This document shows positions 5,484-60,482 of a stretch of 64,000 bases of DNA, piece after piece. The DNA comes from a virus. Lineage: Duplodnaviria; Heunggongvirae; Uroviricota; Caudoviricetes. Location: positions 5,513 to 69,512 of IMG/VR virus record IMGVR_UViG_3300028388_003891; one strand, written 5' to 3'. The stretch's first letter is position 1. The number at the start of each line of letters is the position of its first letter. The position numbers and the translations under genes are program-made. The notes under the pieces were generated by a model. That model was not told where the DNA came from, ran no database searches, and saw only the letters and a program-made list of their open reading frames with translations.

Positions 5484-5528
5484 ATACACCATAACTACAA
5501 AGCTAGTCGGCAACGGAGATAATAAAAA

Positions 5529-10000: not shown

Positions 10001-10043
10001 CGTATGATAAATACTGCCAATAACTGTTTTTGGAAAACAAGCA

Positions 10044-28947: not shown

Positions 28948-29468
28948 TGAGTCTGCGTAATATAGCCCTTTCCACCAATCCAGCAGAGTTGTCTCATACT
29001 GAAGAGGATGATGTTCAGCCAAATGCTGTCGACATACGTCTCGATAAAGTGTGGCAAATTTCCAACGAGACGTTTACCCTCAGTGATAGTCACAAGGGGC
29101 ATCGTGGGTCCGAAGAGCTGTCGTTTACCCGTCATTTCCCCGACCATGAAGGCGAATGGATCGATCTATATCCAGGCAGCTATGAGTTTACCGCTAGAGG
29201 TACTGTGCTAGTTCCGCCTGGGTTCGCTGGGTGGGTAGTTACTCGAAGCACACTGAACCGTAATGGTGTCTTCATAACATCCGGCCTGTACGATAGCGGC
29301 TATCATGGAGTAATGGCCGGCGTAATACATGTATCTTGCGGTCCCTTTCTGGTTCAGCGAGGAACACGCATTGGTCAGTTTATACTTGTCGACGCTGAAA
29401 CATCTCATCAGTACGATGGCGATTACGGTTTGGGTAAAAAGCACGATGATAAGTACACGACTGCGTAG
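28947..29468 (+). CDS. dCTP deaminase / dUTPase-fold protein
   Basis: 'QPNAVDIRLD', 'VPPGFAGWVVTRSTLNRNGV', 'SGLYDSGYHG' and 'RIGQFIL' blocks characteristic of the Dcd/Dut beta-barrel. Its TAG stop (29466-29468) lies inside the following tRNA. Confidence 0.6.
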   Translation: MSLRNIALSTNPAELSHTEEDDVQPNAVDIRLDKVWQISNETFTLSDSHKGHRGSEELSFTRHFPDHEGEWIDLYPGSYEFTARGTVLVPPGFAGWVVTRSTLNRNGVFITSGLYDSGYHGVMAGVIHVSCGPFLVQRGTRIGQFILVDAETSHQYDGDYGLGKKHDDKYTTA

Positions 29469-29535
29469 CACAATCTGGTAGTGCGCTGAACTCTAAATTC
29501 ATGAGATAACGGTTCAAATCCGTTCGCAGTCACCA
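29459..29535 (+). tRNA. tRNA with anticodon CUA (amber-suppressor-like), CCA encoded
   Basis: Acceptor GACUGCG/CGCAGUC, D arm GCAC-AAUCUGGUA-GUGC, anticodon arm CUGAA-CUCUAAA-UUCAU (C27.U43 mismatch), T arm AACGG-UUCAAAU-CCGUU, A73-CCA. Confidence 0.5.
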
Positions 29536-31089: not shown

Positions 31090-31457
31090 TTGCATTTGCT
31101 GGTGGGGCGTTCCATTAACGAAATTCGATGAAGCACAACGAACGGTGCTAAGGACGGGGGTTCGATTCCCCCCACCTCCACCAAAAAGCATACTCTTCCC
31201 GCGAAAGCGGTGCGATGGAAGTCGTCATAATCAACCAAGGGAGTATGCTTTTTGATGGGGGTGCACTGGCTTCGACTTGGACTTAATAGCTTGTGTGGAG
31301 AATAGGTGCGGAAGCTACCTTAAACGCAACAAAGTAAAAAAGTGACGCAGCTAATGATGCTGTGTATGATGTGGCTCTAGCAGCCTGATCATACTGGGGA
31401 TTGACTATCCTTATTATCCAATAAGTCCGGGCAGGTTAAACCTGCCCGTTTTAGTTT
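31090..31457 (+). ncRNA. ssrA: Two-piece (circularly permuted) tmRNA gene: acceptor piece first, coding piece second
   Basis: Acceptor piece ends ...GGACGGGGGUUCGAUUCCCCC-CACCUCC-A-CCA at 31174. The coding piece starts at 31257 with GGGGGUG, which pairs with CACCUCC. The coding-piece head GGGGGUGCACUGGCUUCGAC resembles the tmRNA 5' head GGGGCUGAUUCUGGAUUCGAC. An in-frame tag ORF GCA GCU AAU GAU GCU GUG UAU GAU GUG GCU CUA GCA GCC UGA (31348-31388) encodes AANDAVYDVALAA. The 82-nt intervening segment forms a 13-bp hairpin. Terminator at 31427-31456. Confidence 0.75.
31427..31456 (+). terminator. Rho-independent terminator closing the tmRNA coding piece
   Basis: CCGGGCAGG-TTAAA-CCTGCCCG hairpin followed by a TTTTAGTTTT run. 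Confidence 0.65.
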
Positions 31458-31553
31458 TCTAATTGTAAACGGCCCCTTCTGTTGAATTACGTTTGATAGA
31501 TACGTGACTGTATGGTTGCTGAAAAACAGCAATCCTTTGAAATGGAGATCATT

Positions 31554-50275: not shown

Positions 50276-50361
50276 CGCGGGATATACAAGCGGTCAACGT
50301 GATAGGGCTCATAACCCTATACCTTAGTGTTTCGTGGGTTCGAATCCCACTCCCGCAACCA
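50276..50361 (+). tRNA. tRNA-fMet-like (anticodon CAU), initiator features, unusual 14-nt variable region
   Basis: C1.A72 mismatch (CGCGGGA/UCCCGCA), anticodon stem with three G-C pairs (UAGGG-CUCAUAA-CCCUA), T arm GUGGG-UUCGAAU-CCCAC, A73-CCA. Confidence 0.55.
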
Positions 50362-50991
50362 AATTAACAGGCTGCCTTTCACATAGCCTGTTTTGACCGG
50401 CCCCTGTTTTTCCTCCTCCTTTTCGCAGGGGCCGGTCACCCTCTCCCCCGTTGCCCTCAATCTGACATTAAGAGATAATGTCTATGTTGAATTGAGGAGG
50501 CACCAATGAGCAAATACATTGTTTTCCAAATCGAAGTGACCCGCGCCATGGCCGACAAGATCGAGGTGTGATCGACATCAGAGAGTCGATAATGCCGACC
50601 CACGTCACACTGGCGATTGAAGACGGCCGCCTGATGGTCGTCGACGGCAGTGGGTATGACTTCATCATTGAGGAAGAAGATGAAACACAATCCAGTAGCT
50701 AAACACGCACACAAGTTCAACAAATGCGCCAAGCATGTTGACCGTAAGGCGCGTTCTAAGCGAGGATATCGCAAACACAGGAGAATTGATAATGGGTGTT
50801 GAGAACACAAATGTGGATACCAAAGAGCTCATGGTCGAGATTGATCTTGAACTTGGATCACTTGCGGCGCGGATCGCAACCGGCCTAACGTACAGCGAAA
50901 TCGTCGCGTTCGTTGAAATGATTGATAGCGAGGTATCCGACACCGAGTTTACGGACCAACTGATTAACGCCGTCCTACGCCTCAATGATTA

Positions 50992-51045
50992 ACTGCCCTG
51001 ATGAGTCTTACAGGAGACGAAACGCGCTGATAGCGCGTCGGCAGA
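50992..51045 (+). ncRNA. Hammerhead ribozyme 2 (type I); cleaves between 51039 and 51040, exactly at the tRNA-Tyr 5' end
   Basis: AACUGCC-CUGAUGA-GUCU[UACAGG]AGAC-GAAA-CGCGC[UGAUA]GCGCG-UC^GGCAGAG. Stem I is formed by the upstream CUGCC and the tRNA 5' acceptor strand GGCAG. Confidence 0.75.
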
Positions 51046-51121
51046 GTACACCCGTAACTGGTAGCGGCCCGCACTGTAACTGCGCATAACGTTGGGGGTT
51101 CGAATCCCTCCTCTGCCACCA
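51040..51121 (+). tRNA. tRNA (anticodon GUA, Tyr-type) with short variable region
   Basis: Acceptor GGCAGAG/CUCUGCC-A-CCA, anticodon arm (C)CGCA-CUGUAAC-UGCG(C), T arm GGGGG-UUCGAAU-CCCUC. D arm poorly paired. Confidence 0.55.
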
Positions 51122-51136
51122 AATTGAAAGGAGTTT

Positions 51137-51499
51137 GTGATGAATAAACGCTTCACGATTATCGCTGCGATAGTGATAGGCATCGGTAGTTTGTTTACTC
51201 TTTACGAAGGGGTCAAAGCTATCCGGCAGTATGCGTGGAACCATGAGGTTGTTGACGCTCGTCCCGTCGGTCCCGTTCGCACTGAGCAACGATTGATCGA
51301 ATGTGAGTATACAGGAATATGCTCTCGCTTTGATCCGCTGAACGGCGAGATGAGAACGGGGTTATCATCCTTTTGTCGCGGTCACCGTCCGGTCGTTGCT
51401 CGCATACAAGATGTGCAAGAGACGCTTCGTAACGGCGAGCAACGAATTCGAGAAGAGATAATGAGTCGCACAATCGTCGAGGGCGTAGCATGCAGATGA
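51137..51499 (+). CDS. Hypothetical membrane-anchored protein
   Basis: 120 aa with N-terminal TM helix. RBS AAAGGAG. Confidence 0.35.
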   Translation: MMNKRFTIIAAIVIGIGSLFTLYEGVKAIRQYAWNHEVVDARPVGPVRTEQRLIECEYTGICSRFDPLNGEMRTGLSSFCRGHRPVVARIQDVQETLRNGEQRIREEIMSRTIVEGVACR

Positions 51500-51533
51500 G
51501 CAAAGACGTAACCAAAGAGATTCTCAAAACGAA

Positions 51534-51607
51534 AGGGGATTAGCATAACGGTAGTGCGTCGGACTCTGACTCCGAATGTGGTGGTTCAATTCCACCATCC
51601 CCCGCCA
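51534..51607 (+). tRNA. tRNA-Gln (CUG)
   Basis: Anticodon arm UCGGA-CUCUGAC-UCCGA, T arm GGUGG-UUCAAUU-CCACC, acceptor AGGGGAU/AUCCCCC (A1.C72), G73-CCA. Confidence 0.6.
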
Positions 51608-51612
51608 ACAAA

Positions 51613-51688
51613 GCAGCTTTAGCAATGATGGTTCATGCGCTGGCCTGAAGTCCCAGATATCTCGGTTCGATCCCGAGGAGCTGCACCA
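51613..51688 (+). tRNA. tRNA-Phe (GAA)
   Basis: Acceptor GCAGCUU/GAGCUGC, anticodon loop CUGAAGU with C31.C39 mismatch, T arm CUCGG-UUCGAUC-CCGAG, A73-CCA. Confidence 0.55.
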
Positions 51689-51708
51689 AACAACAAAGGC
51701 GATGAGCA

Positions 51709-51969
51709 ATGTATGCAGTTCCCGAACGGTTTGATGTCCAGGCGCTTGGACGCACGATTACAGTGGTCTCCACGGCGAAGCCAGAAGATGGCGTGTATCA
51801 ATTGTGCGTAGAGATAGATGGCGAAATGGTACAGCTCGATACCTCGGTGCGAATAGAAGGACAGGAACTCTCATATATGATTCACGAGGAGGGGTATCAC
51901 GACATCTTGTTCCGTCTGGTTGCAGACGCAATTGAAGAACAGATGGGCCGTTCAGAAGCAAACAGCTAA
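51709..51969 (+). CDS. Hypothetical acidic protein
   Basis: 86 aa. Stop abuts tRNA 51971. Confidence 0.35.
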   Translation: MYAVPERFDVQALGRTITVVSTAKPEDGVYQLCVEIDGEMVQLDTSVRIEGQELSYMIHEEGYHDILFRLVADAIEEQMGRSEANS

Positions 51970-51970
51970 A

Positions 51971-52048
51971 GCGCCTGTAGCCCAATCAGGTAGAGGCAGC
52001 GGCTTTAAACCCCGTTCAGTGTGGGTTCGATCCCCTCCAGGCGCACCA
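51971..52048 (+). tRNA. tRNA with Leu anticodon UAA but class-I architecture (5-nt variable loop)
   Basis: Acceptor GCGCCUG/CAGGCGC, D stem GCC/GGC, anticodon arm GCGG(C)-UUUAAAC-(C)CCGU, T arm GUGGG-UUCGAUC-CCCUC, A73-CCA. Confidence 0.5.
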
Positions 52049-52082
52049 ACATCGGTTGACGACAACACGCTGGTAAGGGACA

Positions 52083-52301
52083 ATGAGTCTTTTGGAGGAT
52101 AAAACAATGGGTGAACGAACAATTCCTGCTCCAACAGAGCATCACTTCAGCTTTGCGACGGCAGTGGTCGATAATATGGTTCGCAACTGTGGAATCACAA
52201 GCTCCGGCGAAGACATCGATAAACTTAAAGACGCGATGGTTTCGTGCATTGCCCACCGTGACGCAGAGATCCTGTGGCTGCGCAAACTGGTGCATCCGTG
52301 A
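52083..52301 (+). CDS. Hypothetical protein
   Basis: 72 aa with RBS GGAGGA. Confidence 0.35.
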   Translation: MSLLEDKTMGERTIPAPTEHHFSFATAVVDNMVRNCGITSSGEDIDKLKDAMVSCIAHRDAEILWLRKLVHP

Positions 52302-52603
52302 TGTTGTACACTCCAGATAGATGGGTGTTGCTGGAAATCGAGCCGTACAAGTTGTACAAAGTGCTGGCGGGGTGGAATGGTGGTTATCTTTCGGCGGACG
52401 AATGGCGGATCAACTCCGGCATTAAAAGTCTGACCGATGAAGGCCAATATTTCACAGCAACAGGACACAGCGGCAGTGAATACCGTTTGTACAAGGATGC
52501 AGAGGGGTTCAATAAGATCAGCGCAGATGTGCTGTACAACCTCCAGAATGCTTATCCCCATATCGTCACTGTTTCTGCTGAACAATATTTTACGCGGGTG
52601 TAG
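52302..52603 (+). CDS. Hypothetical protein (start at the Met following the upstream stop)
   Basis: 100 aa. Ends with a TAG inside tRNA-Gly. Confidence 0.35.
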
Positions 52604-52669
52604 CTCAGTTGGTAGAGCATCTGGTTGCCAATCAGAAGGCCGTGGGATCGTGACCCATCACCCGCTCCA
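52594..52669 (+). tRNA. tRNA-Gly (GCC) with non-canonical T loop AUCGUGA
   Basis: Acceptor GCGGGUG/CACCCGC, D arm GCUC-AGUUGGUA-GAGC, anticodon arm UCUGG-UUGCCAA-UCAGA, U73-CCA. Overlaps the TAG stop of the upstream ORF. Confidence 0.65.
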
Positions 52670-52803
52670 AATTCTTGAATATGGAATGAGGAGAACTTAG
52701 TGAACAAACTTCGTAATCCGTACGATTCAAGGCAAGCGCCATCTGGGCGCGAATCTAAACAAAACGAACAACCCAGCCCATACGACGCGAGTGGTGTTCG
52801 TCG

Positions 52804-53100
52804 TTGGCTCGAACGGAAAACGAGGCGAAAACATCAAAAGTGAGATTGCTAATTTTTGCAGCGGTGCTGCTTTGTACAGCCTGCTCGACTACGCCGCCAG
52901 GAGTGACAAAACAGTGCGTACGTTACGAGTACAACAACGACTGGGAAATTGTTCAAATGGGCGGCTTCTACAGAGTAAAAGCGCCTCAGATGATATGCCG
53001 AAAATGGATGTATTATGAAAGTAGCAGTGACCGGTACGCGCCACGGAATGACTCGTCCACAAAGACAAATGGTGATGTCGACGATCCACCAGTAGACTGA
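52804..53100 (+). CDS. Small lipoprotein
   Basis: Signal peptide with lipobox 'LLCTAC'. Confidence 0.4.
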   Translation: MARTENEAKTSKVRLLIFAAVLLCTACSTTPPGVTKQCVRYEYNNDWEIVQMGGFYRVKAPQMICRKWMYYESSSDRYAPRNDSSTKTNGDVDDPPVD

Positions 53101-53101
53101 G

Positions 53102-53470
53102 TTGCATCAAGGATGCTGCAAAGGCGTTGATCGCGAATGCTACCTAATGGCAGCAGACAATCCAGACTACGACATAACGATTTACTCGTACCCACCAATT
53201 AATGATCACTATGCGATCAAGTGCCTCGGTCATGTCAATTACAAGCCACAGCCGTTCCTTGTACGCGATCGTGCTCTGGTAGATGCGGCGGATATTCTGC
53301 TATCGATGCCACTTACTGATTACGAGACATTTCGCAGTGGTACATGGTACACTACACGCTATGCTCTGCAGCAGGACAAGCCTGTCGTACTGATTCAACC
53401 TAACGGCACTAGTGTGCCTGCTGATGAAATTGAGAGATACTTACTACCTGGAAAATGGGGTGAAAGGTAA
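53102..53470 (+). CDS. Hypothetical protein (nucleoside 2-deoxyribosyltransferase-like fold?)
   Basis: 'ALVDAADILLSMP...TWYTTRYALQQDKPVVLI'. Weak call. Confidence 0.25.
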   Translation: MHQGCCKGVDRECYLMAADNPDYDITIYSYPPINDHYAIKCLGHVNYKPQPFLVRDRALVDAADILLSMPLTDYETFRSGTWYTTRYALQQDKPVVLIQPNGTSVPADEIERYLLPGKWGER

Positions 53471-54435
53471 TGGAATTCATCAAATACAGCTCGATTGAGA
53501 ATCACTACCGTGAGAAGGTTGTCGACTGGTATCGTGAAAATGGATTAGAAAACGTCGGATGGATCTTGACGGAGAAGATCCATGGCGCTAACTTTTCTTT
53601 CTGGTGCAACAGCAGCGAAGTCAAGGTCGCATCTCGTAACCAATGGGTCGACAGCACATTCTATAGCTGTCAGGACATCATCGACGCGTACACGCCCGTT
53701 GTGCTAGAGCTCGCTACTTTCTTCCCCAACAGCACTGTAGCTGTGTATGGGGAGCTGTACGGACCCGGTATTCAGAAGGGGGTCAATTACGGCGACAAAA
53801 AAGATTTCGTTGCCTTCGACATTCGAGTTGACGGATACTTCCTAGATCGTAATAAAGTACATGTGTACATCGCTGGTGCAAACCAGCTGACATTACAAAA
53901 GCACGGTCAGAGGTCCACCTTGATGGACGTTGTCCCTATTGTTGGCTCGACAGTGTCACTAACACAAGTGCTTGAGTTTGATAACGAGTTTGTATCTGTG
54001 CTTGGCCGTCTCAATGGTGTCGACGACGATGCCAACCTTGCTGAGGGATTCATTGCAACGCCAGTCGGCAAAGCGTACCAACGCATTGGCAGCGACCGTG
54101 TGATCCTCAAATCGAAAGGTGAAAAGTGGACAGAGAAAAGCAAGAAGGTAAAGACGCCTCGTGCTCCTGTTACTGAGCACCCACTGACATCAACGGTTGA
54201 GCAGTATGTCAACACCAACCGTGTCGATGCTGTCACAAGTAAGATGGGCCCGTTGACTCCAAAGGACTTTGGTCGGATCATTAGGGCTGTTTGTGATGAT
54301 GTCATTGATGACATGGTGAAGGACGGTGATGTTCGTAGCTGCTGGCGCGATGACGAAGAGACGAAAGACCTTGGCAAGGTTGTTAACAAAGTGGTAGTGC
54401 CTTTCCTCAAGAAAGAGCTGCTACCGACGTTGTAA
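53470..54435 (+). CDS. RNA ligase, Rnl2 family
   Basis: Nucleotidyltransferase motif I 'TEKIHGANF' (compare T4 Rnl2 'EKIHGTNF'). 321 aa. Embedded in the tRNA/ribozyme array. Confidence 0.65.
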   Translation: MEFIKYSSIENHYREKVVDWYRENGLENVGWILTEKIHGANFSFWCNSSEVKVASRNQWVDSTFYSCQDIIDAYTPVVLELATFFPNSTVAVYGELYGPGIQKGVNYGDKKDFVAFDIRVDGYFLDRNKVHVYIAGANQLTLQKHGQRSTLMDVVPIVGSTVSLTQVLEFDNEFVSVLGRLNGVDDDANLAEGFIATPVGKAYQRIGSDRVILKSKGEKWTEKSKKVKTPRAPVTEHPLTSTVEQYVNTNRVDAVTSKMGPLTPKDFGRIIRAVCDDVIDDMVKDGDVRSCWRDDEETKDLGKVVNKVVVPFLKKELLPTL

Positions 54436-54452
54436 CACGCTTGGCAGTGTAG

Positions 54453-54497
54453 GCGGGTGAGGAACCACGAACTGGATCCAGTGACCCCGCCGTTTTA
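54453..54497 (+). terminator. Terminator-like hairpin after the RNA ligase gene, leading into a TATAAAT box before tRNA-Glu
   Basis: GGCGGG...CCCGCC stem with an internal CTGGATCCAG palindrome, then GTTTTATAAAT. Confidence 0.4.
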
Positions 54498-54505
54498 TAA
54501 ATTAC

Positions 54506-54582
54506 GTCCCTATAGGTTAACAGGTTAGACCTTCAGGCTTTCAACCTGGCAGAGTGGGGTTCGAGTCCCCCTAGGGACACCA
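54506..54582 (+). tRNA. tRNA-Glu (UUC)
   Basis: Acceptor GUCCCUA/UAGGGAC, anticodon arm UCAGG-CUUUCAA-CCUGG, T loop UUCGAGU, A73-CCA. Confidence 0.7.
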
Positions 54583-54586
54583 AATT

Positions 54587-54686
54587 ACGTGCTTGGTGTA
54601 ATGCGTAGCATACCAAGACCGAACTGCGCGAACGCAGATGTAGGCAATCAAAATGGGAGGTCCAGGTTCGAATCCTGGGGCACGTA
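54587..54686 (+). other. tRNA-like element (about 100 nt) with canonical T arm and 3' acceptor strand but no recognisable anticodon arm; no CCA
   Basis: 5' ACGUGCU pairs with 3' GGCACGU-A. T arm CCAGG-UUCGAAU-CCUGG. Interior consists of two hairpins (CUUGGUGU...ACCAAG and CUGCG-CGAA-CGCAG). Confidence 0.3.
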
Positions 54687-54695
54687 ACTAATAAA

Positions 54696-54772
54696 CTGGG
54701 TATAGGGCAGTCTGGTAGCCTACCTCCCTTGGAAGGAGGATGTCGATGGTTCAAATCCATCTACCCAGACCA
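54696..54772 (+). tRNA. tRNA-Pro (UGG)
   Basis: C1-G72 acceptor CUGGGUA/UACCCAG, anticodon arm CCUCC-CUUGGAA-GGAGG, T arm GAUGG-UUCAAAU-CCAUC, A73-CCA. Confidence 0.75.
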
Positions 54773-54924
54773 ATTTTGGCTTGTACGCAAGCGGTGACGG
54801 AAGCAGCTTGCAGAATGTGTTGAACGTCAGATGTGGGTAATACTAGAATCGCTATCTAGAACTAAGACATAGCCACGATGCCGGAGATCCGTGGGGTGCG
54901 TCGTGGCGGCCAAAATTCAACAGA

Positions 54925-55000
54925 GGTGCCGTAGCTTAACGGGGAAAGGCTCAGACTGTCAATCTGAGAGATACGGGTTCGAGACCCGTCGGTACCGCCA
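54925..55000 (+). tRNA. tRNA-Asp (GUC)
   Basis: Anticodon arm UCAGA-CUGUCAA-UCUGA, T arm ACGGG-UUCGAGA-CCCGU, acceptor GGUGCCG/CGGUACC, G73-CCA. Confidence 0.7.
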
Positions 55001-55018
55001 AACTAAAAGGAGAAGAAA

Positions 55019-55267
55019 ATGGACGACAACCAGTTGTATTCCATCAGTTGTATTAGCTTCTTTTTTACGATATGCGTCATAGCGTTTACAATCGGATCTT
55101 GTAATACCAGAGAAGCAGAGCAGGAAACGGAGAGGTATCGAATCGAAATGGATCGATACGATCCTGGTTCGATTGACTATTTGGAAGCGCAGTGTATCGA
55201 GAAGTCGGGACTCCATGCTTCGATACTTCGGTTCTGTGAAGAAGCGCTGGAGAAAGCAAACGGATAA
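55019..55267 (+). CDS. Small membrane protein inside the tRNA array
   Basis: 82 aa with RBS AAGGAG and one TM helix. Confidence 0.4.
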   Translation: MDDNQLYSISCISFFFTICVIAFTIGSCNTREAEQETERYRIEMDRYDPGSIDYLEAQCIEKSGLHASILRFCEEALEKANG

Positions 55268-55268
55268 T

Positions 55269-55345
55269 GCGCCCCTACGCAAATTGGCAAAGCGGCTGGC
55301 TTTAGAAGCCGGTGTTTCTCGGTTCGAGTCCGAGGGGGCGTACCA
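55269..55345 (+). tRNA. tRNA with Leu anticodon UAG, class-I architecture
   Basis: Acceptor GCGCCCC/GGGGCGU (G1.U72), anticodon arm CUGGC-UUUAGAA-GCCGG, 5-nt variable loop, T arm CUCGG-UUCGAGU-CCGAG, A73-CCA. Confidence 0.5.
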
Positions 55346-55351
55346 AACAAT

Positions 55352-55428
55352 GGGTCGTTAGCTTAATTGAGTAAAGCAGCAGGCTTTTAACCTGCCAGAT
55401 CTGAGTTCGAGTCTCAGGCGGCCTACCA
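55352..55428 (+). tRNA. tRNA-Lys (UUU)
   Basis: D arm GCUU-AAUUGAGUA-AAGC, anticodon arm GCAGG-CUUUUAA-CCUGC, T arm CUGAG-UUCGAGU-CUCAG, A73-CCA. Confidence 0.7.
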
Positions 55429-55568
55429 AATCAATATGGCGCTAACTCGTGCCCCGACCACCAGATCGGACTACAATGCTGGTAGGCACCTAGGCCTATA
55501 CTCGCCCCAGTCGAGTGAACGTGTGACAGTTACGACGACACGACCATAATGGAACTGGGACAAATTCT

Positions 55569-55644
55569 TGGCATGTAGCATTGAAGGTAATGCGCCGCAC
55601 TGTTAATGCGGAGGAATCCGGTTCGATCCCGGACGTGCCAGCCA
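55569..55644 (+). tRNA. tRNA-Asn (GUU)
   Basis: Acceptor UGGCAUG/CGUGCCA, D arm GCAU-UGAAGGUA-AUGC, anticodon arm CCGCA-CUGUUAA-UGCGG, T arm UCCGG-UUCGAUC-CCGGA, G73-CCA. Confidence 0.7.
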
Positions 55645-55910
55645 ATTATGGTCCGTTGCATTGGGATGCATCCCTTTGCTGATAAACGAAGGGGAGTAAG
55701 TCGGGCACGCGACCGACCGGAAGCCGGATATAAAGCTGTCATCTGACATGGTGGCAGTCGGACCGCCATACAATGGGGCGAAGTGACGTAGACGCGCGTT
55801 AAGAACAGCCGATCTGAGCCCCACCATAAATAGGTCAACACACTACAGGTTGACAACATGATAGCTTTCAAGGACCATATTCAAGAATCAAGAACAGCTA
55901 AAGTTTTAAC

Positions 55911-55984
55911 GCCCGGTTAGCTCAATGGGAGAGCTACTGCCTTACAAGCAGAGGACGGTGGTTCGATTCCATCACTGGGTACCA
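55911..55984 (+). tRNA. tRNA-Val (UAC)
   Basis: D arm GCUC-AAUGGGA-GAGC, anticodon arm (A)CUGC-CUUACAA-GCAG(A), T arm GGUGG-UUCGAUU-CCAUC, A73-CCA. Confidence 0.65.
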
Positions 55985-56016
55985 AGAATAGTGGAGGGCT
56001 AATGCCCATCTGCGAG

Positions 56017-56084
56017 CTCCACAACGACTGGCAAATGGCGCTGGGGTGTCCCGGAACGGAGGTTCGATTCCTCCCAGTTCGTAC
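56017..56084 (+). other. Truncated tRNA-like element (acceptor-like stem, one hairpin, canonical T arm), no CCA
   Basis: T arm GGAGG-UUCGAUU-CCUCC followed by CAGUUCG-U. Imperfect 5' partner CGACUGG. Preceded by a GUGGAG...CUCCAC nested hairpin at 55991-56023. Confidence 0.25.
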
Positions 56085-56245
56085 TACAACACCGGTTAGT
56101 GATACGAGTAACGATTAAGTTACAGTTGTGGAGCGGTACTATTAGGAATGGCTACAGCATCTAATTACTACGCAGCCAAAGAAAGCCATTCCGTAACAAT
56201 TAAGAGTGTTTGCAGCAACTAATCTTCCATGCTAAGGACGAGGCC

Positions 56246-56302
56246 GCAGGTTCGAATCCTGCTCCCCGCCATCGACGGTGGGGGTAGCTCAGCGGTAGAG
56301 CG
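56246..56302 (+). other. tRNA half-fragments: T arm plus 3' acceptor (CCUGC-UCCCCGC-C) followed 7 nt later by a tRNA 5' half (GGUGGGGG-UA-GCUC-AGCGGUA-GAGC-GC)
   Basis: The 3' strand UCCCCGC(C) upstream pairs perfectly with GGUGGGG downstream, a permuted or fragmented arrangement. The 5' half resembles tRNA-Ala. Confidence 0.3.
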
Positions 56303-56328
56303 CGTAGAAATACACTCTGTTTATTTTT

Positions 56329-56400
56329 GGGGGTGCCGTATGGGACGGACTTAGCCCTTGCAAGGCTGATGGTCGGGATCGTTACCCGATACCTCCACCA
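56329..56400 (+). tRNA. tRNA-Ala-like (UGC) with G3.U70 but a degenerate D arm; possibly a disrupted gene
   Basis: Acceptor GGGGGUG/UACCUCC (G3.U70), anticodon arm UAGCC-CUUGCAA-GGCUG, T arm UCGGG-AUCGUUA-CCCGA, A73-CCA. Preceded by a U-run and the tRNA 5' half fragment. Confidence 0.4.
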
Positions 56401-56406
56401 AACATT

Positions 56407-56484
56407 CACCGTGTAGCTCAGTCTGGTCAGAGCGTTCGCTTTGGAAGCGTAGGGCCACTGGTTCGAATCCAGTCATGGTGACCA
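56407..56484 (+). tRNA. tRNA-Pro (UGG), second copy with different sequence
   Basis: C1-G72 acceptor CACCGUG/CAUGGUG, D arm GCUC-AGUCUGGUCA-GAGC, anticodon arm UUCGC-UUUGGAA-GCGUA (one mismatch), T arm ACUGG-UUCGAAU-CCAGU, A73-CCA. Confidence 0.55.
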
Positions 56485-56664
56485 AATTGGTTCGTGGACT
56501 ACCGTAAGACGCCTACGTTTAGGTGCCGCGACCCCACGAACAAGTCGTGGGACGACAAGCGCGAATGTGTTATATACTTCACACGGACGGTGGCGTCTGT
56601 TGTTGTGAAAGTCGTTAACTAGCGTTGAGCTGATCACTCTAGTCCCGCGGCGGCGCTATTAAAT

Positions 56665-56740
56665 GGGTCGTTAGCTTAACTGGCAAAGCTCCGGTCTCCA
56701 AAACCGGCAGATCGCGGTTCGAAGCCGTGGCGGCCCGCCA
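56665..56740 (+). tRNA. tRNA-Trp (CCA)
   Basis: Anticodon arm CCGGU-CUCCAAA-ACCGG, D arm GCUU-AACUGGCA-AAGC, T arm CGCGG-UUCGAAG-CCGUG, G73-CCA. Confidence 0.7.
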
Positions 56741-56817
56741 AACAGCTCATAAGGTGAGCAGTTGCGACTGGTACATATTCGCCGCCACGCCATATTTTCT
56801 CTTGCCGGAAGATAAAC

Positions 56818-56893
56818 GCTCCTAAAGCATTGCTGGCCGATGCACGGGTCTTGTAAGCCTGAGAACTCAGTTCGATTCTGAGTAGGAGCACCA
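56818..56893 (+). tRNA. tRNA-Thr (UGU)
   Basis: Acceptor GCUCCUA/UAGGAGC, D arm GCAU-UGCUGGCCG-AUGC, anticodon arm CGGGU-CUUGUAA-GCCUG, T arm CUCAG-UUCGAUU-CUGAG, A73-CCA. Confidence 0.65.
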
Positions 56894-56897
56894 ACAT

Positions 56898-56973
56898 GCC
56901 CTCAAAGCATTGCCGATTGATGCGCGAGTTTCGTAAACTTGATAACTGCGTTTGATTCGCAGTGAGGGCTCCA
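56898..56973 (+). tRNA. tRNA-Thr (CGU)
   Basis: Acceptor GCCCUCA/UGAGGGC, anticodon arm CGAGU-UUCGUAA-ACUUG, T arm CUGCG-UUUGAUU-CGCAG, U73-CCA. Confidence 0.65.
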
Positions 56974-57022
56974 ATTGAGCAACTGCAGAATGTCTGCGGT
57001 GATATACAGGTAGGACGCATAA

Positions 57023-57099
57023 GCCGCAGTGACCCAATTGGCAGAGGTGCCAGTTTCAAAAGCTGGATGTTGTCGGTTCGACTCCGACCTGCGGTACCA
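57023..57099 (+). tRNA. tRNA with Leu anticodon CAA, class-I architecture
   Basis: Acceptor GCCGCAG/CUGCGGU, anticodon arm CCAGU-UUCAAAA-GCUGG, 5-nt variable loop, T arm GUCGG-UUCGACU-CCGAC, A73-CCA. Confidence 0.5.
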
Positions 57100-57184
57100 A
57101 ACTACGACGTCGAGCTCAAGATAACACCGGGGACCGGCGTGTGGGAAGGCTATTTGGAATACGGACTGCTTATAAAATGGTTAT

Positions 57185-57259
57185 AGGGATGTAGCGCAAT
57201 TGGTAGAGCAGCGGAGTTTGATTCCGCAGATTCCGGTTCGAATCCGGACATCCCTTCCA
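57185..57259 (+). tRNA. tRNA-Gln (UUG)
   Basis: Acceptor AGGGAUG/CAUCCCU, anticodon arm GCGGA-GUUUGAU-UCCGC, T arm UCCGG-UUCGAAU-CCGGA, U73-CCA. TATAAAAT box about 15 nt upstream. Confidence 0.65.
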
Positions 57260-57347
57260 AGGACAGTAAAATGAACGTACTACGAGAGTACGAACACCAC
57301 AACAAGCTGGTACTCAGTATTTTAATGGATGCTTTAGCTGATCCACC

Positions 57348-57422
57348 GGGCCGGTAGCTTAATGGTAGAGCAGTGCCCTCATAAGGCAACGGTTGTGGGT
57401 TCGATTCCCTCCCGGCCCACCA
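57348..57422 (+). tRNA. tRNA-Met (CAU), elongator type, or Ile2 if lysidinylated
   Basis: Acceptor GGGCCGG/CCGGCCC, anticodon arm (G)UGCC-CUCAUAA-GGCA(A), T arm GUGGG-UUCGAUU-CCCUC, A73-CCA. Confidence 0.6.
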
Positions 57423-57517
57423 GTTACGTAACGCAGGCCGCCCCTGCGACACTTGGGTAGCGCCCAAAACCCCTCTCGAGGACTAGAGAGGCAAAACCAA
57501 AGGTCAACCAATTCAAT

Positions 57518-57593
57518 GCCCTCGTAGCTTAACGGATAGAGCGACTCGCTACGAACGAGTTAGGTGGGAGTTCAATTCTCTCCGAGGGTGCCA
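57518..57593 (+). tRNA. tRNA-Arg (ACG)
   Basis: Acceptor GCCCUCG/CGAGGGU, anticodon arm ACUCG-CUACGAA-CGAGU, T arm GGGAG-UUCAAUU-CUCUC, G73-CCA. Confidence 0.7.
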
Positions 57594-57739
57594 AACGTAG
57601 TTCGTGTGAGCAACCGGTTGTCTGCAGACACCAACGGGAAACGAACTGGCCGGGACAGTGAGATGCTCACACATCACTGATCCACCAATTATGGGGTGAG
57701 GGCGCGCGACTAAGGAATACCTGATCCCCACCATACAAC

Positions 57740-57815
57740 GACGCGATGGCTCGAGTGGTTAGGCCGCCGCCTGCAAAGCGGAAGAATGTCGGTTCGATTC
57801 CGACTCGCGTCTCCA
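57740..57815 (+). tRNA. tRNA-Cys (GCA)
   Basis: Acceptor GACGCGA/UCGCGUC, anticodon arm GCCGC-CUGCAAA-GCGGA (27.43 mismatch), T arm GUCGG-UUCGAUU-CCGAC, U73-CCA. Confidence 0.6.
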
Positions 57816-57821
57816 AACAAT

Positions 57822-57915
57822 GGAAGGTAATGCAGTGCCGATGGTGGCGCGACTGGCCTTGAAAACCAGGTCCCGGCTAAAACCGGGTGGGGTTCGACTC
57901 CTCTGCCTTCCGCCA
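57822..57915 (+). tRNA. tRNA-Ser (UGA), class II with long variable arm
   Basis: Acceptor GGAAGGU/GCCUUCC, anticodon arm CUGG(C)-CUUGAAA-(A)CCAG, variable arm CCCGG-CUAAAA-CCGGG, T loop UUCGACU, G73-CCA. Confidence 0.7.
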
Positions 57916-57932
57916 ACATAGGAGATGGCAAC

Positions 57933-58190
57933 ATGGAAAAGTTTGCAGTGCTTGCCATTACGGCAGGCTTAATCGGTTTGGGGCTAATCCTCATCGCCCT
58001 TGCAATGTCGAAAATTTCAATCCCAGAATGGTTCTTCCGCACACAGGATGGTGTGCGTATTGGAGTGCGTACAGACGTGTTGGGCAACACGAAAGTGCGA
58101 GTTGACTTTGCTGACAAAACAACACGCGCGCTGATCTACAAACGAGCCAAAGCTGTTAACGACCGTGTGACTATGAGTGCACTGCGTTGA
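57933..58190 (+). CDS. Small membrane protein
   Basis: 85 aa with RBS AGGAG. One TM helix (AVLAITAGLIGLGLILIALA). Confidence 0.4.
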   Translation: MEKFAVLAITAGLIGLGLILIALAMSKISIPEWFFRTQDGVRIGVRTDVLGNTKVRVDFADKTTRALIYKRAKAVNDRVTMSALR

Positions 58191-58340
58191 CCTGACAGCC
58201 GGGATTGGAGACAATAAGTACTGATTTGGGCCATTTCGAAAATTGCTGAATTGCTATGTGTGGCCCCGTTTTGCGGCTATATAGAAAGAAGACCGAGGAG
58301 CATAAGCGTAAAATCGCTGAATCTCTACGGAATAGAAAAC

Positions 58341-58417
58341 GCAGGACTGGTGTTTAACGGCTAGCATCTCTGGCTTCCAACCAGAAGGTAGGAGTTCGAG
58401 TCTCCTGTTCTGCTCCA
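58341..58417 (+). tRNA. tRNA-Gly (UCC)
   Basis: Acceptor GCAGGAC/GUUCUGC, anticodon arm UCUGG-CUUCCAA-CCAGA, T arm AGGAG-UUCGAGU-CUCCU, U73-CCA. Confidence 0.65.
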
Positions 58418-58437
58418 AATAATGTCGAGGACAGATC

Positions 58438-58776
58438 GTGGATAATCTGGTTGGAAACCGTTACAATCTGTATGGTGTGTGGGACGACCACATCAAACTG
58501 AACGATACCGTGTACCGTATCGACGTAGACCCGTTTGATGGCTATCGATCCTACCTCAATGGGGTTACGGCGGTACTGCAGACGCCAGAGATGGTGTTTT
58601 CGACGTTGCCCATAGCTGAAATCGTGGTGCACGAAGATCGCACGGAGTGCAAAAACGGATACATCTTGAAAGACGACCTAGGTCACGTGTGGCTTGAGCT
58701 CGGTACCGATCACCACGACAGTTGGTATCCGTATGTGTACATGCGGTATAATCCCAAAGAACCAGATAACGTATGA
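58438..58776 (+). CDS. Hypothetical protein
   Basis: 112 aa. Confidence 0.35.
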   Translation: MDNLVGNRYNLYGVWDDHIKLNDTVYRIDVDPFDGYRSYLNGVTAVLQTPEMVFSTLPIAEIVVHEDRTECKNGYILKDDLGHVWLELGTDHHDSWYPYVYMRYNPKEPDNV

Positions 58777-58777
58777 T

Positions 58778-58855
58778 GGTGGTCGTAGCTCAATTGGTTA
58801 GAGCGTCGGTTTGTGACACCGAAGGCCGAGGGTTCGATCCCCTCCGATCACCCCA
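58778..58855 (+). tRNA. tRNA-His (GUG) with encoded G-1 pairing with C73
   Basis: G-1 at 58778, acceptor GUGGUCG/CGAUCAC, D arm GCUC-AAUUGGUUA-GAGC, anticodon arm UCGGU-UUGUGAC-ACCGA, T arm GAGGG-UUCGAUC-CCCUC, C73-CCA. Confidence 0.75.
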
Positions 58856-58931
58856 AATTAACGACGACTGCAGCCCGATATACAGAGAAGAATAAATACT
58901 GTCCCACAATTCAATTTATTAACACCGATGA

Positions 58932-59008
58932 GCCCTCGTAGCTTAACTGGATAGAGCAACGGAATTCTACTCCGTTTGATGTGGGTTCGAATCCTACCGA
59001 GGGTGCCA
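58932..59008 (+). tRNA. tRNA-Arg (UCU)
   Basis: Acceptor GCCCUCG/CGAGGGU, anticodon arm ACGGA-AUUCUAC-UCCGU, T arm GUGGG-UUCGAAU-CCUAC, G73-CCA. Confidence 0.7.
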
Positions 59009-59010
59009 AT

Positions 59011-59298
59011 TTGAAATACGATCTGCCAGCATTATATGATGAGCTGAGCCCAAAACAAAGACGAGACGTCCGCCTACAATATGTTGAGCAACAACAAGGC
59101 AAGTGCTATTGGTGCAACCATGACCTCAACCAGGATCCTCCAATTTCGATACTTAATGAATGGATCAACTGGGACCTATTTCCCGACGGGTTCCGAAAAC
59201 ATCCGATCCATCTGCAGCACGACCACGATACGGGACTGACGGAGGGCGCCGTGCATATGAGATGTAATGCCTATATGTGGCAGTATCGTGGACGGTAA
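59011..59298 (+). CDS. Small HNH-like endonuclease (CxxC...HxxH motifs); TTG start just after the tRNA
   Basis: 'CYWCNHDL...HLQHDHDTGLTEGAVHMRCNAY'. The ORF-track ATG start at 58981 lies inside the tRNA, so a TTG with a GAGGGTG RBS was used. Confidence 0.35.
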   Translation: MKYDLPALYDELSPKQRRDVRLQYVEQQQGKCYWCNHDLNQDPPISILNEWINWDLFPDGFRKHPIHLQHDHDTGLTEGAVHMRCNAYMWQYRGR

Positions 59299-59348
59299 TA
59301 TATCTGTATAGTAGAATTTGGGCTAATATACCGATATAGTAGAATTAT

Positions 59349-59423
59349 GGCTTCATAGCTCAATGGCAAGAGCACTCGGCCGATAACCGGGAGATCTAAG
59401 TTCGATTCTTAGTGAAGCTACCA
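59349..59423 (+). tRNA. tRNA-Ile (GAU)
   Basis: Acceptor GGCUUCA/UGAAGCU, D arm GCUC-AAUGGCAA-GAGC, anticodon arm CUCGG-CCGAUAA-CCGGG, T arm CUAAG-UUCGAUU-CUUAG, A73-CCA. Confidence 0.7.
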
Positions 59424-59428
59424 AACAC

Positions 59429-59503
59429 GCCCCTGTAGTACAACCGGTAGTACACCACCTTGGTAAGGTGGAGAACGTGGGTCGGGACCACGCTGGGGCA
59501 CCA
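59429..59503 (+). tRNA. tRNA-Thr (GGU) with non-canonical T loop GUCGGGA
   Basis: D arm GUAC-AACCGGUA-GUAC, anticodon arm CCACC-UUGGUAA-GGUGG, T arm CGUGG-GUCGGGA-CCACG, acceptor GCCCCUG/CUGGGGC (one mismatch), A73-CCA. Confidence 0.6.
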
Positions 59504-59510
59504 AACTAAA

Positions 59511-59588
59511 GCCTGAGTACCCCAATTGGCAGAGGGGCGAGATCGAGAATCTCGTTAGGTGTGGGTTCGAGTCCCACCTCAGGTACCA
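59511..59588 (+). tRNA. tRNA with Leu anticodon GAG, class-I architecture
   Basis: Acceptor GCCUGAG/CUCAGGU, D arm CCCC-AAUUGGCAGA-GGGG, anticodon arm CGAGA-UCGAGAA-UCUCG (C33), T arm GUGGG-UUCGAGU-CCCAC, A73-CCA. Confidence 0.5.
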
Positions 59589-59869
59589 ACGCGTGCAACC
59601 TGTGTTACGTTGCAAACGTGCACACGGTCATCCACCTTGATGCGCAATTGCGCTCCGACGTTGATCTGCTGGTCATTCGTATCGAGCTCGACGTCACTAT
59701 TTGGACGCAGCTTTAACGTGCAATCAGATTCGACGACCCAGTCGCCTCGTCGGTCAGTCTGAACGAGTACGACTGACGGGGCAAACCACACTGAGCGAAT
59801 CTCCGTTGGGTGTGGTGCGGCAAAGGCCGCTGTTGACAAAAGTGCTAATGCTAGTAGAAGGTATTTCAC
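59579..59869 (-). CDS. Small secreted protein (signal peptide MKYLLLALALLSTAAFA)
   Basis: 96 aa on the minus strand. The hairpin at 59590-59625 may terminate it. Confidence 0.4.
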   Translation of the reverse strand: MKYLLLALALLSTAAFAAPHPTEIRSVWFAPSVVLVQTDRRGDWVVESDCTLKLRPNSDVELDTNDQQINVGAQLRIKVDDRVHVCNVTQVARVGT

Positions 59870-59930
59870 AATAGGCTCCTATGAGTGTATATAAGGTATA
59901 TATGCTCTATACATCTTCTCGGAATACATT

Positions 59931-60080
59931 ATGAGTAAAAAGGCGAAAGATTCACAGCTCCTCATCAAAGTTAACAAAGAGGACAAGAAAGCCTTCATTG
60001 AAATATGTGAATCGCAAGACACGACTGCAAGTCGTGAGATCCGCAGATTCATTTCACGCACTATCAAAAAACATGGGTGA
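59931..60080 (+). CDS. Small ribbon-helix-helix-like protein (49 aa, not in ORF track)
   Basis: 'KVNKEDKKAFIEICESQDTTASREIRRFI' beta-strand/helix pattern typical of Arc/CopG/ParD-like RHH proteins. 7 nt upstream of the next ORF. Confidence 0.3.
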   Translation: MSKKAKDSQLLIKVNKEDKKAFIEICESQDTTASREIRRFISRTIKKHG

Positions 60081-60086
60081 TGTATT

Positions 60087-60383
60087 ATGACGAACATTAA
60101 GCGGGACGACGTGCAACAGTCCTTTACGAACCGCCGTAACGAAATCGCGAACAGGCTTGAGGCATCTCTCTTTGGGGCACGTAACGAAGACATTACGATG
60201 AGCCCTCGCGCCCTTGAAGCGGTTGAGGTGTGCGCGGAGGGGATCGATACGATGGGCAAGTACATTGACTATTTGGAAGCTGCCCTACATAAGGCGCGCA
60301 CACGTGTAAAGGACCTCGAGCGCATCACAGCATCACCACAAGACGTCACTGTTGTCAAAGATGGCGCGCAGGTGCGACTATAG
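60087..60383 (+). CDS. Hypothetical protein downstream of the RHH gene
   Basis: 98 aa. Ends with a TAG abutting tRNA-Ser. Confidence 0.3.
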   Translation: MTNIKRDDVQQSFTNRRNEIANRLEASLFGARNEDITMSPRALEAVEVCAEGIDTMGKYIDYLEAALHKARTRVKDLERITASPQDVTVVKDGAQVRL

Positions 60384-60390
60384 CTATATT

Positions 60391-60482
60391 GGAAGGTTGC
60401 CAGAGAGGTCGATTGGGGCTCCCTGCTAAGGAGTTGACCCTCTTATGAGGGTCCGAGAGTTCGAATCTCTCACCTTCCGCCA
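60391..60482 (+). tRNA. tRNA-Ser (GCU), class II
   Basis: Acceptor GGAAGGU/ACCUUCC, anticodon arm GCUCC-CUGCUAA-GGAGU, variable arm GACCCUC-UUAU-GAGGGUC, T arm GAGAG-UUCGAAU-CUCUC, G73-CCA. Confidence 0.7.

Follow-up and report, generated by a model that had tools for sequence, protein, structure and literature searches.

Leucine tRNAs without a long variable arm in the tRNA array of a T4-like phage, and the family to which they belong

Background

Is a tRNA that carries a leucine anticodon, and is devoid of the long variable arm, still a leucine tRNA? The question is raised by four genes found in a stretch of 64,000 nucleotides from a tailed virus (Caudoviricetes; IMG/VR record IMGVR_UViG_3300028388_003891, positions 5,513 to 69,512), referred to below, at its full length, as the window. 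A first-pass annotation, made from the sequence alone, had described them as four tRNAs reading leucine codons and built as class I molecules, and had regarded them as unusual, on the premise that tRNA-Leu of bacteria and of T4 belongs to class II, with a long variable arm. Taken as a rule for bacteria and phages, this premise turned out to be too broad, since short-arm leucine tRNAs form a family present both in phages and in Actinomycetota. The four tRNAs are not an anomaly and are not unique: they belong to this widespread and under-described family.

Results

Detection and structure of the four leucine tRNAs

The four genes lie within a tRNA array located at 50276..60482 on the plus strand, where ARAGORN identified 28 tRNAs and Rfam one more, at 51040. 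CCA is encoded in nearly all of them, and small open reading frames (ORFs) are interspersed. ARAGORN and Rfam agree on the positions and anticodons originally proposed for the four genes, all on the plus strand: tRNA-Leu(UAA) at 51971..52048 (75 nt plus CCA; 49.0 bits), tRNA-Leu(UAG) at 55269..55345 (74 nt plus CCA; 53.9 bits), tRNA-Leu(CAA) at 57023..57099 (74 nt plus CCA; 54.7 bits) and tRNA-Leu(GAG) at 59511..59588 (75 nt plus CCA; 48.5 bits). The Rfam scores, obtained with the RF00005 model, range from 48.5 to 54.7 bits, where the gathering score is 29 bits; the corresponding E-values lie between 1.9e-7 and 5.2e-9 and the matches cover model positions 1-71.

The sequences were explicitly parsed into the elements of the cloverleaf. 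In all four the acceptor stem has 7 bp, the D stem 3 bp, and the anticodon and T stems 5 bp each; the anticodon loop measures 7 nt and CCA is encoded. The D loop is 11 nt long (12 nt in 51971), and the discriminator is A73 in each of them, as previously annotated. In the UAA tRNA (51971), which has the D loop CAAUCAGGUAGA, the variable loop UCAGU and a G1-C72 pair, two mismatches are found, C31-C39 in the anticodon stem and U50-U64 in the T stem. The other three have G1.U72. The UAG tRNA (55269) has the D loop AAAUUGGCAAA, the variable loop UGUUU and a C2-G71 pair, and can be aligned without gaps with 52 family members. The CAA tRNA (57023), also with C2-G71 and with the variable loop AUGUU, is parsed as GCCGCAG UG ACC CAAUUGGCAGA GGU G CCAGU UUCAAAA GCUGG AUGUU GUCGG UUCGACU CCGAC CUGCGGU A CCA. 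The GAG tRNA (59511) shares this D loop, CAAUUGGCAGA; its variable loop, UUAGGU, is of 6 nt, and in its anticodon loop, UCGAGAA, C33 replaces the near-universal U33.

The variable loops are thus of 5, 5, 5 and 6 nt, without any extra stem, and none of the four has the variable arm of at least 10 nt with a paired stem that is found in canonical class II tRNAs. As the molecules measure 74-75 nt before CCA, a long variable arm, or an alternative fold containing one, is impossible. The class I assignment therefore stands for all four, with loops of 5 nt in three of them and a longer one in 59511; likewise, the canonical U33 loops attributed to the whole set are found in three, 59511 being the exception.

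The same array contains a tRNA-Ser(GCU), at 60391..60482 (plus strand), whose long variable arm includes 7 bp in the ARAGORN drawing, which indicates that the loss of the arm is specific here to leucine. Pairwise identity among the four Leu tRNAs is 59-73%, so that they are not recent duplicates. Following standard wobble rules, the four anticodons cover the six leucine codons, as had been suggested, and all six are used by the ORFs of the window, at 7.7-17.2 per 1000.

A covarying family in viral contigs

IMG/VR was searched by using the pattern AATTGGCARA-N9-YTNARR-N15-17-TTCRA, which describes the D loop, a Leu anticodon loop and the class I distance to the T loop, and at least 120 contigs were matched. 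When ARAGORN was run on the matched loci, 177 Leu tRNAs not exceeding 80 nt were found among the matches listed, as against 37 long ones; in the same loci, and with the same scope, 90 of the 91 Ser tRNAs and 40 of the 41 Tyr tRNAs had a long arm. A scan that left the variable loop free in length gave about 18 short Leu tRNAs and 106 long ones, which suggests that about 15% of the IMG/VR Leu tRNAs with this D loop are short, a rough figure, as the order of the scan is unknown and the long class is inflated by host tRNAs flanking prophages.

An ungapped alignment was built from 54 distinct members of 74 nt, including two tRNAs of the window. Paired cells amount to 99.3%, compared with 53.6% in shuffled alignments and 36-46% with slid partners, and all of the 20 pairs show changes on both sides. 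Positions U8, A14, A15, G18, G19, A20a, U33, A35, U48, T54, T55, C56, A58 and A73 are invariant. All four window tRNAs can be aligned, with a few gaps, with those of Mycobacterium, of the phages Sf13 and DLP_6, and of an environmental contig, L357, from a relative of the phage under study.

These data bear on the simplest objection, that the four sequences are chance tRNA-like folds, or class II tRNAs incorrectly parsed. When folded as single sequences by minimum free energy (MFE), only 59511 yields the full cloverleaf, and the z-scores are modest (-1.2 to -2.1); failures of this kind are, however, usual for tRNAs. Two independent detectors recognise the genes, with E-values down to 5e-9, no space is available for an extra arm in 74-75 nt, and compensatory changes are seen across hundreds of homologues. 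The Rfam scores, the covariation and the explicit parse refute the objection, to which we assign a negligible probability, in agreement with the earlier judgement that a misfold was unlikely.

Short-arm leucine tRNAs in cultured phages

In 62 phage records of GenBank, genes annotated as tRNA-Leu were matched in a BLAST comparison by the CAA tRNA (57023). Felix O1-like phages (Ounavirinae) and Stenotrophomonas phage DLP_6 carry genes 76-78% identical to it; they belong to other phage lineages, and infect Enterobacterales and Stenotrophomonas, respectively. As in the window, the arrays of these phages encode CCA and contain Leu tRNAs of 74-76 nt, their Tyr and Ser tRNAs being long-armed. In Ounavirinae of three genera every Leu tRNA is short: UAG, CAA and UAA in Shigella phage Sf13 (78-79 nt including CCA), CAA, AAG and UAA in Erwinia phage phiEa21-4, UAG and UAA in Salmonella phage Si3. 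Between the UAG tRNAs of Sf13 and Si3, the anticodon stem has undergone compensatory changes. The T4-like DLP_6, unlike the window, has a mixed set, composed of a 74-nt class I Leu(CAA) and a long class II Leu(UAG).

For the three Leu tRNAs of Shigella phage Sf14, a published tRNAscan-SE 2.0 analysis reports Leu as the top isotype model, with scores of 67.4, 49.1 and 60.2, and labels them as 'consistent' (PMC12482277). The mismatch between isotype and anticodon which the first-pass annotation expected tRNAscan-SE to flag is thus not seen in these homologues. The variable arm is not mentioned in that 2025 analysis (PMC12482277), nor is its absence in the literature found on the tRNAs of Felix O1-like phages and DLP_6. 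Comparison with related phages, also proposed at the outset, bore out the reality of short-arm Leu tRNAs, through L357, Ounavirinae and DLP_6, and not their unusual status.

Short-arm leucine tRNAs in bacterial chromosomes and mobile arrays

The same pattern was run on the GTDB representative genomes, and loci of up to 8 kb were fetched. Among the matches listed, to which the GTDB figures refer, all of the 134 Leu tRNAs called by ARAGORN are short, and 93 of them are the only tRNA in the fetched stretch. Most of these solitary genes come from Actinomycetota (Nocardia, Rhodococcus, Gordonia, Mycobacterium, Corynebacterium, Arthrobacter, Amycolatopsis and others), with UAA, CAA and UAG as the prevailing anticodons, and have a D arm nearly identical to the phage consensus. 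The remaining short Leu tRNAs are located in long tRNA arrays, such as those of Cylindrospermum (26 tRNAs, five of them class I Leu), of a metagenome-assembled genome of Rhodocyclaceae and of Asanoa.

Long arrays of this type, described in bacteria as L-arrays (PMC8421152, PMC6582537), resemble that of the window in being dense, in including many isotypes and in containing class I Leu tRNAs; they differ in that they reside in bacterial genomes or plasmids, and not in the genome of a T4-like virion. A short-variable-loop tRNALeu(UAG) encoded by a mobile mycobacterial tRNA cluster is the object of a passing remark by Behra et al. (2019, PMC6582537). On the whole, the distribution of short-arm tRNALeu is much wider than the rare, Streptomyces-bound occurrence depicted by Fan et al. 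(2019).

Leucine identity elements

Isotypes were assigned to the 5' halves of the tRNAs by a k-nearest-neighbour procedure, which returned Leu for 57023 and 59511 and not for 51971 and 55269. The results were noisy, and the method failed for many ordinary tRNAs as well; a test based on a Leu D-arm motif was therefore used instead. The motif consists of a 3-bp stem, N13, A14 and A15, 2-3 nt, G18G19, N, A20a, R and A. It is present in all four Leu tRNAs of the window, and is also fitted by one of the non-Leu tRNAs, the Asp tRNA at 54925, a loose match which we take to be due to chance. Among the matches listed for the fetched viral loci, the motif is found in 121 of 180 long-arm Leu tRNAs (67%), in 128 of 177 short-arm ones (72%) and in only 3 of about 1,290 non-Leu tRNAs (0.2%).

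In E. coli, leucine identity depends on A73, A15-U48, G18G19, A20a and tertiary pairs that link the D loop to the T loop, and C2-G71 acts as an antideterminant against seryl-tRNA synthetase (SerRS), as reviewed in PMC9976931. The E. coli-type set (A73, A15-U48, G18G19, A20a, U8-A14, T54-A58, C2-G71) is complete in all four tRNAs of the window, and the G19-C56 elbow pairing is also retained. Marks of other isotypes, namely G3.U70, G73 or a long arm of the type used by SerRS, are found in none of them. Canonical class II tRNALeu from bacteria, T4 and T5 have in common with the window tRNAs the D arm, A15-U48, G18G19, A20a, A73, C2-G71, a frequent G1.U72 and a U directly preceding the T stem, and differ from them by an extra stem-loop with 3-5 bp.

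We consider it probable that the four genes encode working phage tRNALeu of this type I family, which would be charged by the host's leucyl-tRNA synthetase (LeuRS), and that the arm could be lost because LeuRS ignores it.

The phage, its host and its tRNA array

Pfam searches and capsid comparison identify the source as a divergent T4-like myovirus. The window encodes the T4 portal protein gp20, the major capsid protein gp23, a tail sheath protein, UvsW and UvsX, as well as a gp44-type clamp loader, a family B DNA polymerase and a DnaB-like helicase. The nearest capsid protein in GenBank is that of Phage C48C1 (64% identity), followed, at 55-59%, by those of phages of Methylophilales, Pelagibacter, Stenotrophomonas, Sinorhizobium and cyanobacteria. 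A megablast search of the tRNA array against GenBank phages found no close DNA relative; the sole match was the tRNA-Gly(GCC) gene at 52594-52669, 96% identical to a tRNA of Ruegeria phage RpAliso.

Upstream of the array, on the plus strand, are an amber-suppressor tRNA(CUA), labelled 'Pyl' by ARAGORN (29459-29535), and a permuted two-piece transfer-messenger RNA (tmRNA) at 31091-31479 (Rfam, 95 bits), whose tag ends in ANDAVYDVALAA, an ending that we take to resemble Rhodobacterales tags. Together with the tRNA-Gly match to RpAliso, the tag gives a weak hint of a marine alphaproteobacterial host. An actinobacterial host, of which the short-arm tRNAs would be simple mimics, was considered and appears unlikely in view of the T4-like core genes, of a G+C content of 47-50% and of the permuted tmRNA. 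The presence of a phage-encoded LeuRS in the window was also considered and was rejected, the sole ORF of at least 800 codons being the DNA polymerase.

Inside the array, at 53470..54435 on the plus strand, lies an Rnl2-family RNA ligase gene (Pfam RNA_ligase and T4_Rnl2_C), with a possible role in tRNA repair. It was used as a marker in searching for relatives: its protein homologues, and then the contigs encoding them, led to L357, whose Rnl2 is 54% identical and whose tRNA array resembles that of the window, with Leu(UAA) and Leu(UAG) tRNAs that measure 77 nt. A pattern search of IMG/VR for close relatives, also based on Rnl2, gave 13 matches, none of which was confirmed. Beside its array, L357 has RtcB in addition to Rnl2 (at 1-710 and 10001-10936); along with the position of Rnl2 within the window array, this suggests that a capacity for tRNA repair is tied to the tRNA genes.

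Several other sequences of the array, all on the plus strand, depart from the usual tRNA structure. The tRNA(CAU) at 50276-50361 measures 83 nt before CCA and looks like a bacterial initiator, in that C1 and A72 are mismatched and the anticodon stem is closed by three G-C pairs. Its variable region, of about 14 nt, is unusually long for such a tRNA, in a genome in which the Leu tRNAs are deprived of theirs. The sequence at 51040-51121, missed by ARAGORN and scoring 40.4 bits in Rfam, has the anticodon loop CUGUAAC (GUA, Tyr), A73 and CCA; its D arm is irregular, and its variable region contains only about 9 nt, all unpaired. It is the one candidate Tyr tRNA of the window, and may represent either a degenerated copy or a tRNA-Tyr from which, as in Leu, the long arm has disappeared. 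A gene resembling tRNA-Ala(UGC), at 56283-56400, has G3.U70, CCA and D, anticodon and T arms of normal form, with about 50 nt inserted after the D arm and before the anticodon arm; the folding energy of the complete sequence is -49.4 kcal/mol (z = -2.4). The inserted segment could be intron-like, or could mean that the gene is disrupted. A weak match to Y-RNA-like sequences (YrlA), at 56238-56306, overlaps this gene. At 57822-57914 a class II tRNA-like sequence of 90 nt, also missed by ARAGORN, has an extra arm that is paired and, in the anticodon loop CUUGAAA, the Ser anticodon UGA; it scores 41.1 bits with the tRNA-Sec model, below the gathering score of 47. Finally, the intergenic stretches 54583-54690, 55985-56090 and 56200-56270 contain good T arms (GGTTCGAATCC) and acceptor-like ends, in the absence of any complete tRNA call, and resemble the 'tRNA-like stable RNAs of unknown function' annotated between the tRNAs of T5.

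Discussion

The four window tRNAs may be read as ordinary bacterial tRNALeu from which the stem-loop of the extra arm has been removed. Compared with class II E. coli sequences, the variable loop of 5-6 nt would correspond to positions 44-45 and to the short unpaired stretch through which class II tRNALeu lead into the T stem, U48 being its last nucleotide. Transcribed in the infected cell, as we infer, the four would be charged by the host LeuRS and would jointly decode the six leucine codons for the phage. E. coli LeuRS needs neither the long arm nor the anticodon arm for charging, and neither the anticodon nor the long arm is an identity element (PMC9976931). SerRS does use the long arm. 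Bacterial tyrosyl-tRNA synthetase (TyrRS) also uses it. The extra arm could therefore be lost in Leu tRNAs and not in those for Ser and Tyr, and the indifference of LeuRS alone to the arm fits the Leu-only loss observed in phage arrays.

The closest biochemical precedent is the type I tRNALeu(CAA) of S. coelicolor, which has a 5-nt variable loop and is leucylated by its own LeuRS, with a kcat/Km of 6.25 s-1 uM-1 as compared with 14.2 for the type II tRNA; five nt, including position 48, are the minimum for the variable loop (Fan et al. 2019, PMC6614811). It is the only short-arm tRNALeu of bacteria or phages for which leucylation has been demonstrated, and the case is called rare by its authors (PMC6614811). 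The type I tRNAs of S. coelicolor and of other Actinomycetota share with those of the window a 5-nt variable loop, a GCCCAAUUGGCAGAGGC-type D arm, A14, G18G19 and A73, and align without gaps to the 74-nt window tRNAs. The differences are in genomic setting and in some of the identity nucleotides: the actinobacterial ones are chromosomal housekeeping genes, usually for one or two isoacceptors that stand beside class II tRNALeu, whereas the phage has four, reading all leucine codons; S. coelicolor has C48 and a LeuRS which ignores A73, whereas U48 and A73 are invariant in the phage family, as part of the E. coli-type set. In addition, the host of the window phage, unlike that of the Streptomyces case, is probably not an actinobacterium. 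Animal mitochondrial tRNALeu likewise have the shape of class I, and A14 and A73 serve them as identity elements (PMC9976931). Mitochondrial tRNAs, however, have degenerate D and T loops and a LeuRS of their own, and the human one is not charged by S. coelicolor LeuRS, while the phage tRNAs retain the canonical G18G19 and T54-psi55-C56 in a bacterial-like sequence.

Some observations weigh against this interpretation of the four genes as functional leucine tRNAs. E. coli LeuRS fails to leucylate the type I tRNALeu(CAA) of S. coelicolor, whose recognition is attributed to the leucine-specific domain of the Streptomyces enzyme (PMC6614811), so that charging by the LeuRS of a proteobacterial host is not guaranteed; as a conjecture, the presence of C48 in S. 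coelicolor, as opposed to the invariant U48 of the phage family, may play a part in this failure. That the host is a proteobacterium we infer solely from the T4-like core genes and the permuted tmRNA. The C33 of 59511 and the two stem mismatches of 51971 could each reduce function. Moreover, class II Leu tRNAs are kept by T5 (85 nt) and by Ruegeria phage RpAliso (84-85 nt), which indicates that loss of the arm is no general requirement of phages.

Part of the same evidence would suit a different reading, in which the four molecules bear leucine anticodons and carry another amino acid, or none, acting as recoding tRNAs or as decoys for anticodon nucleases, or being decaying pseudogenes. The failure of E. 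coli LeuRS on the one Streptomyces tRNA, the mismatches of the UAA tRNA, the C33 of the GAG tRNA and the several clearly aberrant tRNA-like sequences of the array point in this direction. C33 is found in 3 of the 329 short-arm Leu tRNAs examined among the matches listed, and could be a change of a type for which evasion of anticodon nucleases has been proposed, or a mild defect. On the other hand, all four have the Leu D arm, A15-U48 and A73 without marks of other isotypes; every stem of the family covaries and loops of the U33/A35/A37 type are conserved, which speaks for selection as working tRNAs. Leu is ranked first by the tRNAscan-SE isotype models for homologues, and short-arm genes stand alone in Actinomycetota, M. 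tuberculosis having, by implication of a study of the toxin MenT3, a long loop in three of its five tRNALeu (PMC11541572). Mainly because of the covariation and of the intact Leu identity set, we regard mischarged or decoy molecules as very improbable.

A further possibility accepts leucine identity, and differs solely on the reason for the missing arm, whose loss would be an adaptation to host defence: tRNALeu of phages and mobile arrays, still charged by LeuRS, would escape toxins or nucleases that grip the long arm, a way barred to Ser and Tyr tRNAs by the need of their synthetases for it. MenT3, an AbiEii-family nucleotidyltransferase toxin, needs the long variable loop of tRNASer; deletion of the loop abolishes modification, and its graft onto tRNAMet confers it (PMC11541572). 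A preference of the abortive-infection toxin AbiEii for class II tRNAs is suggested by a preprint. Rnl2 in the window array, and RtcB with Rnl2 in L357, suggest pressure from tRNA damage, and anticodon-loop changes of the type to which the rare C33 of the GAG tRNA belongs have been proposed as a means of evading anticodon nucleases (PMC10264068). Nevertheless, no toxin is known to target tRNALeu through its arm, and MenT3 prefers Ser over Leu tRNAs. The solitary housekeeping short-arm tRNALeu of many Actinomycetota have no obvious driver in escape from anti-phage systems, many phages keep class II Leu tRNAs, and a neutral loss, allowed by a LeuRS that ignores the arm, would give the same Leu-only pattern. 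Such an adaptation is therefore unlikely, though less so than mischarging; if it did occur, four class I isoacceptors would let the phage translate all leucine codons while the class II tRNALeu of the host are disabled.

Conclusions

Taken by itself, the window is of little importance: its four genes are ordinary members of a family already represented in databases and studied biochemically in one bacterium. More is to be drawn from the general pattern: short-arm tRNALeu are common in phage arrays, including those of E. coli, Shigella and Salmonella phages, and in mobile bacterial arrays, and represent, across Actinomycetota, the normal chromosomal form of some isoacceptors. In the literature found they are still a Streptomyces rarity, and E. 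coli LeuRS is reported as charging type II tRNALeu only. We found no publication describing short-arm tRNALeu as common or phage-wide, beyond the remark on the mycobacterial cluster and the Streptomyces study, and a review of non-canonical tRNAs (PMC7609411) does not cover them. The broader point is that type I tRNALeu are more prevalent in phages of Proteobacteria than published accounts convey.

For annotation, this means that a phage tRNA of 74-77 nt with a Leu anticodon should not be marked as an error. For the biology of leucine tRNAs, the short-arm family offers a way of learning from nature which features of class II can be dispensed with, and has a possible link to tRNA-targeting immunity.

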